From the NCBI RefSeq assembly GCF_900167395.1, contig NZ_FUWK01000020.1:1-32000 (forward strand): a DNA stretch of 32,000 nucleotides. The letters are read 5' to 3'. The DNA comes from Nitrosomonas europaea (GTDB lineage: Bacteria > Pseudomonadota > Gammaproteobacteria > Burkholderiales > Nitrosomonadaceae). The notes under the pieces were generated by a model. It worked only from the letters and a program-made list of their open reading frames with translations, had not been told where the DNA came from and searched no databases. Shown here piece after piece: positions 17,241 through 32,000 of this stretch. Position numbers and translations under genes: made by a program. Position 1 is the first letter of the stretch. Each line of letters opens with the position of its first letter.

Positions 17241-18212
17241 TCAGCAATCCAGGCAGATCGTTTGATGCATGGCAGCATCTGTTCGGGAAAAATAGGCTTT
17301 GGCGCGATCCACGTCCTGTTCTATTTGTTTTACGAGTGTTTCCATATCAGGAAATTTTTCTTCATCTCTGAGTTTTTGTAAAAAATCGACTCGCAAATGC
17401 TGTCCATAGATCTGTTCATCAAAATCAAACAAATGTACTTCCAGCAGCGGTTGTGCGTGTTCGAAAACGGTTGGCCGGACACCCACACTGGCTACTCCCC
17501 GGATTCGCCGTGTATGGCCTGAATCATTACACCAGTTTGCTTCCACCACGAAAATACCGCTTAGTGGAAGATGATGATGCTTCAACCATATGTTGGCCGT
17601 CGGAAAACCCAGTTTTTTGCCCAGTTTGATGCCATCCACCACCCGCCCGCTGATGCTGTAAGGGCGCCCCAGGAAGTCTGCAGCCAGATCGAGGTTGCCC
17701 GATGCCAGGGCATCGCGCACTGCTGTACTTGATACCCTCAATTCATCCACAGTAACGGGGGACATGACCTCCAGCTCATCTGGCTCCGAAAAGAACTTTC
17801 TCAGCAAGGTAAGATCTCCCGAACGCCGGGCACCAAAACGAAAATCCTCTCCTATCAGCAGCCAGCGGACATTCATTTCCTGCAGCAGAATACGTGTGAT
17901 GAACGATTCCGCACTGATTCCGGCAAATTCATGGTCGAAACGACAGATCTGCGTACGACTCACGCCATAACCCGCCAGCAGTTCCAGTTTCTCACGCAAA
18001 TCCGTCAACCGCGCCGGAGCCTGCTCGGGCATCAGACGCTCTCGCGGATGCGGTTCAAACGTCATGACACATGATGCAATTCCCAAACGACCGGCAACCC
18101 GCTTCAGGCGGGCGATCATTGCCTGATGGCCAAGATGCACACCGTCAAAATTGCCTATGGTCAGAGCAACAGGCTCTCCCCTATAGATCACCGACCGTCG
18201 GGTTATACGCAT
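17241..18212 (-). CDS. ribF: bifunctional riboflavin kinase / FMN adenylyltransferase
   Basis: 323 aa with the N-terminal [15 protein letters not shown] and the kinase motif GFPTAN. ribF-ileS-lspA is a conserved order. Confidence 0.94.
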
Positions 18213-26741: not shown

Positions 26742-26768
26742 ATTACCGATAACCTTTCTTGTGATTGG

Positions 26769-26793
26769 ATGCTGTCCCTTCCACAGCATTTTT
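26769..26793 (+). terminator. Rho-independent terminator after the Nudix gene
   Basis: Stem ATGCTGT (26769-26775) pairs with ACAGCAT (26783-26789) around the loop CCCTTCC, followed by TTTT (26790-26793). Confidence 0.6.
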
Positions 26794-26846
26794 CAGAAAA
26801 AGCTTGAATTTTTTGTGTTGCCGATAGCGATGCAGAAATTTACCAT

Positions 26847-26875
26847 TTGACTTAAAACAGTATTTTCCTTATAAT
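26847..26875 (+). promoter_or_regulatory. sigma70-type promoter of initiator tRNA-Met
   Basis: TTGACT (26847-26852), a 17-nt spacer, then TATAAT (26870-26875). The mature tRNA 5' end lies 13 nt downstream. Confidence 0.7.
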
Positions 26876-26887
26876 GTTTGGCTCAGT

Positions 26888-26964
<77 letters not shown>

Positions 26965-27513
26965 GCTTATCTTTGCAAAGTTCCATGTAGTTCCCCGGTA
27001 AGAATTCAGATTTATGGGATGAAGTCAGTTATCCTGTTTCTATCCGGCAAAATTTCGAATCTTCCCACCAGTCATATTTCTGCTGACTGATCCAGTTACC
27101 ACTTTGGCTTGTTGCTGCAGTGAAGAATCATCATCACTAGCCTTACTGCCTCCGCCAAACATTCCAGCAAAGCTACCATGCAGATCTGGCGTATTCAGAT
27201 TCAGCAACCCTATCTTTTCAAGCATGAGTACAATCTACCAATCAGATTTCCAAGCAGGTCTGCTGCCACAGTGCTGATTTCTTCCCCGCCGGGAGAAATT
27301 CGCAGTGCTTCAACTTCTTCCTTGCCCGAGGCAGTGTATTCACCATGGAAACGGAGTATGAAAAAGTCCATATTGTCGGGCTGACCGAATCTACATACTT
27401 TTAGAAATACAATGCAGTCGTTCAGATAAAAGAAATCAGGAAAATCATCCCGACAAAATAGAGAACTGCGGAAATACCGGAATGGCAGAACCAGATGTAA
27501 ATATCTGATTTAT

Positions 27514-27589
27514 TGGCTCCCCGACCAGGGCTCGAACCTGGGACCTGCGGATTAACAGTCCGTCGCTCTACCGACTGAGCTATCGGGGA
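27514..27589 (-). tRNA. tRNA-Asn (anticodon GTT)
   Basis: The reverse complement reads TCCCCGATAGCTCAGTCGGTAGAGCGACGGACTGTTAATCCGCAGGTCCCAGGTTCGAGCCCTGGTCGGGGAGCCA. It is 76 nt, folds as a cloverleaf, has the anticodon loop CTGTTAA, and encodes its CCA. Confidence 0.93.
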
Positions 27590-27619
27590 ATATGTTGTGG
27601 TAACTGCTACAAGCGCGGT

Positions 27620-27648
27620 ATGTTAGACTTTTATGCTGTGCCGGTCAA
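27620..27648 (-). promoter_or_regulatory. candidate sigma70 promoter of tRNA-Asn
   Basis: On the minus strand: TTGACC (complement of 27643-27648), a 17-nt spacer, then TAACAT (complement of 27620-27625), followed by a GC-rich discriminator (ACCGCGC). Confidence 0.45.
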
Positions 27649-27760
27649 CTTTTCTCGTAGCCAGTTACGGAATCAATGATATCGTCAGCCAGATCAGATT
27701 GTTTTTTTAAATAACACAGATAAAACTGCCTTTTTTATCACTGGAAAGAATCCTGTCTGC

Positions 27761-28970: not shown

Positions 28971-30815
28971 ATGTATCCATTACTTGATCGCATTGAGATA
29001 CCCGCACAGCTACGTACACTGAAACGCAATCAACTGCCGCAGTTAGCGGATGAATTACGTAATTTTCTGGTTGAATCCGTGGCAGGCACAGGCGGGCATT
29101 TATCTTCTAATCTCGGGACGGTCGAACTGACCATTGCACTGCACTATGTGTTTGATACACCCTTTGATCGTCTGATCTGGGATGTCGGACATCAGACTTA
29201 TGCTCATAAAATCCTCACTGGCCGGCGTACAGGAATGGCTCGTCTGCGCATGCAGGGAGGAATTGCCGGCTTTCCCAGACGGGATGAAAGCGAATACGAT
29301 GCTTTTGGCACCGCACATTCCAGCACCTCCATAAGTGCAGCACTCGGCATGGCAGTCGCCGCACGGCTCAAAGGCGTAAAGCAGCATGCAATTGCCGTGA
29401 TTGGTGATGGTGCAATGAGTGCAGGTATGGCTTTTGAAGCACTGAACAATGCCGGCGTAATGGATGCCAATCTGCTGGTTATTCTGAACGATAATGATAT
29501 GTCCATTTCCCCTCCTGTAGGGGCGCTCAACAATTATCTGGCCAAACTGATGTCCGGTCGTTTCTATGCTACTGCCAGACGCGCAGGCGAGAAAATGCTG
29601 GGTGTGGTTCCTCCTGTTTTGGAGCTGGCAAAACGAGCCGAAGAACATGTCAAAGGTATGGTAACGCCCAGCACACTATTCGAAGAATTCGGCTTCAATT
29701 ACATCGGTCCGATAGATGGTCACGATCTGGATATCTTGCTGACCACGCTGAACAATATCAAGCAACTCGATGGCCCGCAGTTTCTACATGTCGTCACCCG
29801 TAAAGGCAAGGGTTATAAACAGGCAGAAGAAGATCCGATTCTCTACCATGGAGTCGGAAAATTTCAACCGGATCAGGGTATTGTATCGAAACCTTCTGCC
29901 AAACTGGCTTACACGCAGATATTCGGTGACTGGTTATGTGACATGGCAGCAAAAGATTCACGTCTGATTGGTATCACTCCTGCCATGAGAGAAGGCTCCG
30001 GACTCGTTCGTTTTTCGAAAGAGTACCCGGATCGCTATTTCGATGTAGGGATCGCAGAGCAGCATGCCGTGACATTTGCCGCAGGTGCAGCTTGCGAAGG
30101 ATTGAAACCGGTCGTGGCAATTTACTCGACCTTCCTGCAACGTGCTTACGATCAGCTGATCCACGATGTTGCCATTCAGAATCTGCCGGTTGTTTTTGCA
30201 ATCGACCGTGCCGGGCTGGTGGGTGCAGATGGACCGACACATGCCGGCAGTTTCGATCTGAGTTACCTGCGCTGCATTCCCAATATTACGGTCATGACGC
30301 CCGCCGATGAAAACGAGTGCCGTCAGATGCTCTACACTGCCTTCCAACTCGATACCCCTGCTGCCGTTCGCTATCCACGCGGCTCAGGTCCCGGTGTACA
30401 GATCCAGCAGGAAATGCAGACCATCCCGCTGGGTAAAGGTGAAATCCGCCGACAGGGTAAGCAGATTGCACTGCTGGCATTCGGCAGCATGCTGACCCCC
30501 TGTCTCGAAGCGGGAGATGAACTAGATGCCACGGTAGTAAATATGCGTTTTGTCAAACCGTTGGATCAAGAGCTGGTTGCAACCCTTGCTGCCGAACATG
30601 AATTACTGGTTACCATTGAAGAAAACACCATCATGGGAGGCGCTGGCAGTGCAGTCATGGAAAGTCTTTCCAGTCTGGATAAAAACGTCAGACTGCTGCA
30701 ACTCGGCTTGCCAGACAGCTTCATCGATCAGGGTGATCCCGCACACATGCTATCCGACTGCGGACTGGATAAGGCCGGCATTATCCAGTCGATAAAAGAA
30801 AGGTTCTCTTTATAA
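28971..30815 (+). CDS. dxs: 1-deoxy-D-xylulose-5-phosphate synthase
   Basis: 614 aa. GGHLSSNLG, the TPP motif [16 protein letters not shown], and [12 protein letters not shown]. Confidence 0.97.
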
Positions 30816-30841
30816 TGTCACTAATGTCATACATCGCAGCG

Positions 30842-31274
30842 TTAGGCCGCTAGGGAGGCCATCGTGGATCTTGCGCAAAAATCAGATGCAGAAATCTTGG
30901 CTGTAGCGACTCCCATCATGGACAACCTGATGGATGCTTCCACGGCTATCGACTACGAGCGTCATACTCGTGACTTCACGGAACGGGCCAGAAGTGTTCT
31001 GTCCGAAGAGTCGCTTCAGTCAATCTGCGAGCACTATCAAAGCACCAAAGGGTTCTTTGCCAAACGCGAATTTGTGGCAGCTTTCAGGCGCCCCGACTCT
31101 GTGGCTATCGTCTGGCGTCAGCAGTTCACTAAGCAACCGGGGGAGTTCGTAGCCGAGCTAATCTTGGTGCAACAAGGCGGCAAGTATCTCGTTGACCATG
31201 TGATGGTCTTCTAGTACGCGGCCTAACAATTCATTCAAGCCGACACCGCTTCGCGGCGCGGCTGAATTCAGGCG
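30842..31274 (+). mobile_element. integron-type gene cassette (one ORF plus attC), integrated outside an integron
   Basis: It begins with TTAGGC directly after a G (30841). It ends with a 60-bp attC whose R'' box GCCTAAC (31221-31227) is the exact complement of G+TTAGGC. It holds a single co-oriented ORF with its own SD. See the findings. Confidence 0.75.
30864..31214 (+). CDS. cassette-encoded hypothetical protein (116 aa)
   Basis: GTG start 5 nt after AGGGAGG (30852-30858). The reading frame is open and uninterrupted, and I recognise no motif. It ends 6 nt before the attC. Confidence 0.65.
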   Translation: MDLAQKSDAEILAVATPIMDNLMDASTAIDYERHTRDFTERARSVLSEESLQSICEHYQSTKGFFAKREFVAAFRRPDSVAIVWRQQFTKQPGEFVAELILVQQGGKYLVDHVMVF

Positions 31275-31280
31275 ATAAAC
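31221..31280 (+). other. attC (59-base-element) recombination site; R' half replaced by target DNA after the crossover G at 31274
   Basis: The sequence is GCCTAAC-AATTC-ATTCAAGCCG-ACA-CCGC-TTC-GCGG-CG-CGGCTGAAT-TCAGGC-G. It is an imperfect palindrome with the R''-L''/L'-R' layout and bulged bases. From memory it is very similar to the aadA1-type attC of class 1 integrons. Confidence 0.75.
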
Positions 31281-31306
31281 GACAACACTGACCGAATGTC
31301 GTTTTT
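31277..31306 (+). terminator. candidate intrinsic terminator of the xseB-ispA-dxs(-cassette) transcript
   Basis: AAACGACA (31277-31284) pairs with TGTCGTTT (31297-31304) around a 12-nt loop, and the T run continues to 31306. The stem is AT-rich, so this is a weak call. Confidence 0.4.
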
Positions 31307-31409: not shown

Positions 31410-32000
31410 ATGAACAAACAGATCGATCTACCCATTGCTGATGTACAAGGCTCGTTGGACACAAGACATATTGCCATCGACAGAGTAGGAATCAAAGCGA
31501 TCCGGCATCCTGTCGTGGTGGCAGATAAAGGCGGTGGCTCCCAGCATACCGTGGCGCAATTCAATATGTACGTCAATCTGCCCCACAACTTCAAGGGAAC
31601 CCACATGTCTCGCTTTGTCGAGATACTGAACAGTCACGAGCGCGAGATTTCGGTCGAATCGTTCGAGGAAATCCTGCGTTCCATGGTCAGCAGACTGGAA
31701 TCGGATTCCGGACATATCGAAATGGCCTTCCCTTACTTCATCAATAAATCTGCACCTGTCTCGGGTGTAAAAAGCCTGCTGGACTACGAAGTGACATTTA
31801 TCGGTGAGATCAAACACGGCAATCAATATAGTTTTACCATGAAGGTAATCGTCCCTGTTACCAGCCTGTGCCCCTGCTCCAAAAAAATATCCGACTACGG
31901 TGCACACAACCAGCGTTCACATGTCACGATTTCGGTGCGTACCAATAGTTTCATCTGGATCGAGGACATCATCAGAATCGCGGAAGAGCAGGCCTCATGC
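31410..32000 (+). CDS. folE2: GTP cyclohydrolase FolE2 (type IB), 5' part (continues past the right edge)
   Basis: Absent from the ORF track because it has no in-window stop. The ATG at 31410 follows AGGAAGGAG. The translation is [37 protein letters not shown]...[29 protein letters not shown]...[19 protein letters not shown]. These are the FolE2/DUF198 signature stretches. Confidence 0.85.

Follow-up and report, generated by a model that had tools for sequence, protein, structure and literature searches.

A complete integron gene cassette of 433 bp lies between dxs and folE2 on the Nitrosomonas europaea chromosome, and it very probably came to lie there when an integron integrase inserted the circular cassette into a double-stranded site that belongs to no integron, 5'-GCG/ATAAAC-3' (a secondary, or attG, site; here and below the slash marks the crossover point). 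The first-pass annotation of the 32-kb stretch of DNA that we analysed, which we call the window, had proposed a lone cassette at a secondary, non-attI site between these two genes, and that proposal is upheld by homologs of the cassette in integron arrays, by a covariance model of attC sites, and by the empty sites of related lineages.

A complete cassette between dxs and folE2

The locus is organised as follows.

28971–30815, + strand: dxs (1-deoxy-D-xylulose-5-phosphate synthase), the upstream neighbour, a 614-aa ORF
30842–31274, + strand: the inserted gene cassette, TTAGGC... to ...CAGGCG, 433 bp, missing en bloc from lineages L114, L108, L109, and L112
30853–30858, + strand: Shine-Dalgarno sequence GGGAGG, cassette-borne, 5 nt ahead of the GTG start
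30864–31214, + strand: the cassette ORF, 116 aa, a predicted NTF2-like small protein, exact match to CAD85073.1 of N. europaea ATCC 19718
31221–31274, + strand: the cassette-derived part of the attC, from the R'' box GCCTAAC through L'', a central CCGC-TTC-GCGG hairpin, and L' to the crossover G
31411–32000, + strand: folE2 (GTP cyclohydrolase IB, Pfam GCHY-1), the downstream neighbour, extending beyond the window

The Dxs encoded in the window is 100% identical to a Nitrosomonas Dxs (P0121) and carries the Pfam DXP_synthase_N and transketolase domains, and in L081 and L083, whose loci are identical, folE2 is called as a PF02649 protein of 268 aa. Between them, the cassette is made up of a 5' end reading G/TTAGGCCGCTAGGGAGG, one 116-aa ORF, and a 60-nt attC. 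Its boundaries are read directly in the sequence, and our reading agrees with the earlier one at each point. GTTAGGC at 30841–30847, which fits the core G/TTRRRY, is the exact reverse complement of GCCTAAC at 31221–31227; the left flank ends in GCAGCG, and ATAAAC follows G31274. A single co-oriented ORF lies between the two cores, its GTG start following a 22-nt leader that begins after G30841 and includes the Shine-Dalgarno sequence. A consensus scan found no promoter-like site inside the cassette. The bases GCG are common to the attC and the target, and the sequence alone leaves the position of the crossover ambiguous within these three bases.

A hybrid attC site

The stretch 31221–31274 is the imperfect palindrome that had been described for it, with the layout R''/L''/central hairpin/L'/R', and a model alignment pairs its R and L boxes while leaving the spacer and bulge positions unpaired. 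Its bottom strand folds at −15.2 kcal/mol (z = −2.5 versus shuffles); the fold of the top strand is no better than that of shuffles (z = −1.2). Rfam holds no attC family and returned chance matches only, so we built our own covariance model, R1, which is a proxy and is distinct from the model used by IntegronFinder. It was trained on 22 attCs from arrays L093, L095, L096, L101, and L104 plus aadA1, with none taken from the window, and contains 17 pairs. The R-box and L-box pairs covary in these training sites, with 88% of cells paired versus 19–45% when the partners are slid, and with 36 double-sided changes versus 11 in shuffles.

The attC called in the first-pass annotation is also the one match that R1 gives in the window (31221–31280, + strand, 52.7 bits, E = 7e-11). 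The next-best match in the same 32 kb reaches 11.6 bits, bona fide array attCs score 20–75 bits, and loci that lack the cassette gave no match. A single match each was also found in the 12-kb L083 locus and in the L115 loci. The non-standard pairs of the window match are at the expected places: three belong to the R box, which has a chromosomal 3' half, and the fourth, at 31264, belongs to the L box. Besides the R' half, the attC differs by two substitutions, at 31245 and 31264, and it is 52/54 identical to 60-nt attCs in the cassette array of a Luteimonas metagenome-assembled genome (L095). In a base-by-base comparison up to the crossover G, it agrees with the aadA1 and aadB attCs of plasmid pBT2101 at 48 of 54 positions; an identity of roughly 90% to the aadA1 attC had been given in the first-pass annotation, and this figure is close to the 89% found up to the crossover G and above the 83% (50/60) found over all 60 nt. 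Plasmid records that match a 71-nt stretch of the site number over 5000, and in these the match falls at the 3' end of class 1 integron cassettes (aadB, aac(6')-IIa, and catB3).

The identity ends exactly after G31274, where ATAAAC stands in place of TTAGGC. The R'' triplet at 31225–31227 is AAC, and the R' triplet at 31274–31276 is GAT, not GTT. Since GAT is the product of insertion at a GWT secondary site, we read this as a hybrid site rather than as one with a canonical R'.

If the gene were instead native to the locus and followed by a GC-rich palindrome, for instance a terminator-like hairpin, that resembles an attC by chance, the unremarkable top-strand fold would be as expected, as would an ORF with no Pfam match of its own. 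We attach practically no probability to this explanation. The matches to plasmid cassette ends and the R1 score are far beyond chance, the site agrees with attCs within arrays at 52 of 54 positions, the same ORF occurs with the same 5' boundary in integrons, and the whole unit is missing from sister lineages. A role of the palindrome as an intrinsic terminator was rejected, as no T-run was found.

Two substitutions in the central stem, at 31245 and at position 6385 of L083, are both G-to-A on the top strand. The first separates all copies in the N. europaea clade from the array consensus, and the second is found in the lineage of L083. On the bottom (recombining) strand, and there only, each of the two preserves a pair as a G.T wobble. 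With two events, this pattern could also reflect a plain C-to-T mutation bias.

The same cassette in integron arrays

Homologs of the cassette are found in genuine integrons. One, whose product P0003 is 92% identical, adjoins intI in L093, L094, and L098 and lies inside arrays in L095 and L096; the integrase beside it has Phage_int_SAM_4 and Phage_integrase domains and the IntI-type patch KY..A.KEL.WQF..RHH. A second (P0002, 93%) is also found within arrays, and the homolog of Nitrosomonas sp. Nm51 lies within array L101. Every array copy starts with G/TTAGGCCGCTA(A/G)GGAG..CATC-start after the previous attC or an attI. This boundary and leader correspond to 30841–30863 of the window, with AAGGAG/GGGAG as the counterpart of the Shine-Dalgarno sequence, and the 5' end is identical in arrays L093–L098. 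The array copies carry a 112-nt attC with R''/L'' and L'/R' ends as in the window and a longer central part, and the 60-nt attC type of the window is found on other cassettes of those arrays. The nearest integron-borne copies are ~85% identical in DNA, with dS of ~0.9, so the actual donor lies outside the sampled copies.

Several of these homologs have features of their own. The short contig L098 (429–2918) bears intI, a non-class-1 attI-like junction ...TTATTAGGTAG/TTAGGC, the present cassette in first position, and then an aadA-like gene, which places a cassette of unknown function and a resistance cassette in one integron. In the Nm51 array (L101, 3507–3545), the homologous cassette is followed by only ~27 nt, CTCTAACAGTTCAGTCAAGCG/TTAGACC, an attC that has kept R'' and R' and is without its entire central part. 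An 83% homolog lies between a 5'-nucleotidase gene and hom on a 2.77-Mb high-GC contig (L099, 8001–8351), and a 78% homolog lies in a 4.66-Mb Acidovorax contig (L118, 6001–6351); neither a GTTAGGC boundary nor an attC was detected with R1 at either. These two may be cassettes domesticated after loss of their attC, or they may represent a pre-cassette chromosomal form of the gene.

The cassette product

The cassette protein has 639 homologs, nearly all of them exactly 116 aa long, in hosts that include Luteimonas, Halothiobacillus, Comamonas, Acidovorax, Alicycliphilus, and Nitrosomonas sp. Nm51, and its 90% protein cluster includes Xanthomonas arboricola proteins. Against the array copies, dN/dS is ~0.04, indicating strong purifying selection across the family. 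An AlphaFold2 model from a 38-sequence alignment (pLDDT 96.5) consists of helices followed by four long strands, and its Foldseek matches are the NTF2-like proteins SgcJ, SgcE6, and SPO1084 and the N-terminal NTF2-like domain of PBP2a/PBP5, at TM-scores of 0.5–0.64. The product is thus predicted to have an NTF2-like fold. By sequence, the window protein has no match in Pfam, NCBIfam, PADLOC, or the PDB; membership of its family in Pfam DUF3887 is weak, with matches in 7 of 38 relatives, and UniProt names the protein as DUF4440-containing. No defence, resistance, or enzymatic family was matched. The ORF presumably bears the locus tag NE1162, a search for which in the searchable literature returned nothing.

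Empty sites and a probable single gain

We reached the corresponding sites of relatives through a search for Dxs homologs and the contigs that encode them; a scan of genome contigs with Dxs gave none closer than 84% among the matches listed. Ordered by the identity of their Dxs to that of the window, the lineages are as follows.

L083: Dxs 100%, occupied, dxs dS to the window 0.04
L115–117: Dxs 98%, occupied with an identical attC, dxs dS 0.11
L114: Dxs 97%, empty, dxs dS 0.34
L108: Dxs 96%, empty, dxs dS 0.52
L109–111: Dxs 95%, empty
L112 (N. eutropha): Dxs 92%, empty

Lineages whose Dxs is at least 98% identical are therefore occupied and those at 97, 96, 95, and 92% are empty, with dxs dS values of 0.04–0.11 in the occupied lineages versus 0.34 in the nearest empty one. 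Occupied loci comprise L081–L092 and L115–117 only, all in the N. europaea clade, and the exact protein and a 99% variant always occur in the context dxs-ORF-folE2 on N. europaea-like contigs. In the empty lineages, folE2 follows dxs directly, with no ORF and with spacers of 115–167 nt, and the two genes are adjacent in more distant Nitrosomonadaceae as well. Conservation of the ORF and palindrome at this locus across a whole family had been raised as grounds for abandoning the cassette interpretation; both occur here only in the N. europaea clade, and the homologs elsewhere sit in cassette arrays with intI.

The first-pass annotation had also predicted the sequence of the uninterrupted junction, and relatives without the ORF reconstitute it. 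L114 reads ...ATATTGCGATAAACAAG... and L109 reads ...ATATTGCGATAAATAAC..., compared with ...ATCGCAGCGATAAACGAC... for the window minus 30842–31274; over longer spans, the sequences are ...ATGTCATACATCGCAGCGATAAACGACAACACTGACCG... for the window so edited, ...ATGTCATCACATATTGCGATAAACAAGAGAATTGATCG... for L114, and ...TATTGCGATAAATAACAAAACTGACCG... for L109. The nine bases of the predicted junction, GCGATAAAC, are contiguous in the nearest sister lineage, L114, where they read GCG/ATAAAC, so the insert is exactly one 433-bp cassette unit. The L114 target site is TATTGCG/ATAAACAAG, and the dxs-folE2 junction of N. europaea rejoined after removal of the cassette would read GCAGCGATAAAC. In metagenome contigs, we found no unoccupied allele of the N. 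europaea type (CATACATCGCAGCGATAAACGACAACAC), and the occupied junction was found there just once, so this absence is uninformative about polymorphism or excision.

Parsimony favours one gain, on the branch that leads to the N. europaea clade, as the account of this distribution. The opposite polarity, with the cassette ancestral at the locus and lost from sister lineages by precise integrase-mediated excision, would turn the apparently empty sites into excision scars, and precise excision would leave exactly the nine-base junction. This history is very unlikely in our view, however, since the cassette would have to have been lost precisely, each time independently, from four or more lineages (L114, L108, L109, and L112) and from all more distant Nitrosomonadaceae, as compared with one gain. 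The empty sites also vary in an ordinary way (GCGATAAAC, GCGATAAAT, GCAATAAGC), like an old uninterrupted spacer, and the dxs dS values already suggest that the occupied state is limited to one terminal clade.

Nor do the flanks suggest that a chromosomal integron or CALIN once stood at this locus and decayed, losing its intI, its attI, and all its cassettes but this one. Single attCs and CALINs are frequently taken to be relics of integrons, and an integrase is reported in N. europaea, which would both fit such a history. Yet the flanks together seamlessly restore the spacer of the relatives without additional DNA, and on its left the cassette borders on chromosomal sequence and on neither attI nor attC. 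A second attC was found neither in the 32 kb upstream nor in the 6 kb downstream, and there is no fragment of intI. We give a decayed integron hardly any credence. The earlier statement that the window lacks intI agrees with a tblastn search with two integron integrases, in which the only match had E = 0.13, and the R1 scan and tblastn together found neither a second attC nor an intI near the insertion. That weak tblastn match, at 17946–18161, falls inside ribF and is not a recombinase.

The target site and the probable mechanism of insertion

Recombination of the cassette with the site seen empty in the sister lineages, which remains our preferred reading, divides the target into two halves.

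30833–30841, + strand: left half of the attG target, ...CGCAGCG, ending with the crossover G30841 and aligning with ...ATATTGCG of the L114 and L109 empty sites
31275–31283, + strand: right half of the attG target, ATAAACGAC, which with G31274 forms the hybrid R' box G/ATAAAC and is contiguous with GCG in L114

GATAA had been put forward as a secondary site, and G31274/AT indeed fits the GWT consensus of genomic attG sites. The IntI1 secondary sites of Francia 1993 and Recchia 1994 reportedly have the consensus GWTMW or GNT, and GATAA fits the former. At +6 to +9, the target lacks the CRGM hot-spot motif, which is a feature of E. coli hot spots and not of all attG sites; these positions read CGAC in the window and CAAG in L114. 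According to Frumerie et al., the first base must be identical in both partner sites, and recombination stays close to the wild-type level when one partner is altered at the second base of GTT. The title of Leon & Roy 2003 states that the N. europaea integron integrase excises and integrates cassettes.

If the established integron pathway operated here, a circular cassette bearing the NTF2-like ORF and a 60-nt attC of the Xanthomonadales/aadA type would have been opened at the G/TT of its attC, and the folded bottom strand of this attC would have recombined with the target at G/AT. The single-strand exchange would then have been resolved by replication; for the strand-exchange and replicative steps after synapsis, we infer this course from established integron biology, with an integron integrase as the presumptive enzyme. 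The expected product, target-left-G/TTAGGC...cassette...CAGGCG/ATAAAC-target-right, agrees with both junctions of the window, where the attC is now a hybrid whose R' half is chromosomal. One insertion of this kind in the ancestor of the N. europaea clade, after its split from the nearest sampled sister lineage, followed by vertical inheritance, would account for the present distribution. Transposition was considered and rejected, as there is no flanking direct repeat or target duplication beyond the shared GCG and no transposase nearby.

Transcriptional setting

The cassette is followed by folE2 and preceded, at the end of dxs, by one further feature.

30789–30816, + strand: promoter-like TCGATA-16-TATAAT, which shares bases with the stop codon of dxs and precedes the cassette by 25 nt

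This site has 10 of 12 consensus matches and is a pattern match only, since such sites are no commoner in the region than in shuffles; it is a candidate source of transcription for the cassette and folE2. A consensus scan found no terminator-like site between dxs, or the promoter-like site, and the cassette. Lacking its own promoter and equipped with its own ribosome-binding site, the cassette shares the orientation of dxs and folE2, so its transcription, ahead of folE2, most likely comes from dxs by read-through or starts at the promoter-like site where dxs ends.

Other features of the surroundings may be recorded here. The last codons of dxs, just ahead of the promoter-like site, contain an abutting inverted repeat of 14+14 nt (30763–30790, GACTGGATAAGGCC/GGCATTATCCAGTC, 93% complementary). 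Farther upstream, a 1-kb gap between a NUDIX gene and xseB (26742–27760) holds two tRNA genes on opposite strands, at 26888–26961 (+) and 27517–27589 (−), and in the relatives L108 and L112 the annotation shows fragments of transposase genes immediately ahead of xseB.

Comparison with known single cassettes

Insertion at genomic GWT sites, termed attG, has been demonstrated experimentally as efficient and integrase-mediated, and genome-inserted cassettes are reported to be expressed when they lie near a resident promoter. The element described here fits the definition of a SALIN that probably formed by attC x attG recombination. It consists of one CDS and one attC, its vicinity is free of intI and of further att sites, its crossover lies at a GWT triplet (here GAT) with the attC left as a hybrid, and the cassette is close to, and co-oriented with, a resident transcription unit. 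Unlike the attG hot spots, the target has no CRGM motif, which is not a general requirement, and the host is a chemolithoautotroph whose cargo is not a resistance gene. The insertion is natural and fixed and its empty site is kept in sister lineages, whereas no such check is reported for the SALINs in the available part of the census. That census counts 3400 SALINs in 21,105 RefSeq genomes, which speaks against the view of the first-pass annotation that an isolated chromosomal cassette is unusual, and a RefSeq-wide count of this kind would probably have included the present case without comment. We did not find the dxs-folE2 case in the searchable literature. The accompanying expectation that the cassette is fixed in place also needs to be relaxed, since occasional excision of genome-inserted cassettes at the insertion point has been observed experimentally; such a cassette is not strictly locked.

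Earlier natural cases of a cassette at a secondary site are known for aadB in RSF1010 and in pRAY. These likewise concern a complete single cassette at a non-att site, just downstream of a promoter there and of a promoter-like site here, but they are plasmid-borne resistance genes under selection, whereas the present cassette is chromosomal and lies between two core biosynthetic genes. On the Pseudomonas aeruginosa plasmid pBT2101 (NZ_CP039991.1; L113, 3007–3072), an aadB cassette ends in ...CAGGTG/TTGAACGACAGC and directly adjoins a resolvase gene and a Tn3-family transposase, where a further cassette or a 3' conserved segment would normally follow; this end may be another off-integron junction.

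With the 60-nt attCs of aadA1, aadB, aac(6')-IIa, and catB3 and those of Xanthomonadales chromosomal integrons, the present attC shares the R'' box GCCTAAC, the L boxes, and the central hairpin, but its R' sequence beyond the crossover G is chromosomal, ATAAAC and not TTAGGC. The element resembles a CALIN in being an attC-bearing cassette with no adjacent integrase. A CALIN comprises at least two clustered attC sites, often with remnants of intI, and with only one attC the element is not a CALIN.

Implications

The dxs-folE2 cassette is a natural and unusually complete example, dated and exact to the base, of how integron cassettes spread by the "genome route", a route that has itself already been described. 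One can see both of its junctions, a cassette of the donor type in real integrons, and, in sister lineages, the virgin target. In censuses of isolated attCs, true insertions cannot be told apart from false positives or from remnants of arrays, and in the present case this separation can be made. The current model of integron biology is unchanged, and specialists would find no surprise here after the attG work.

To our knowledge, N. europaea carries no cassette array, and together with the active integrase reported for the species this would allow scattered GWT sites to serve as its normal manner of keeping cassettes. In such an organism, the cassette would have been domesticated into the dxs-folE2 unit, with the bottom-strand foldability of its attC under selection, as the two stem substitutions, both G.T wobbles on that strand only, might suggest. 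We regard this extension as speculative and unlikely. If a foldable attC were nevertheless selected, the gene would stay mobilisable, or the expression of folE2 would be modulated. The locus also shows that, in a streamlined ammonia oxidiser, a cassette of unknown function can become established between two genes essential for biosynthesis and be retained there through speciation-level divergence.
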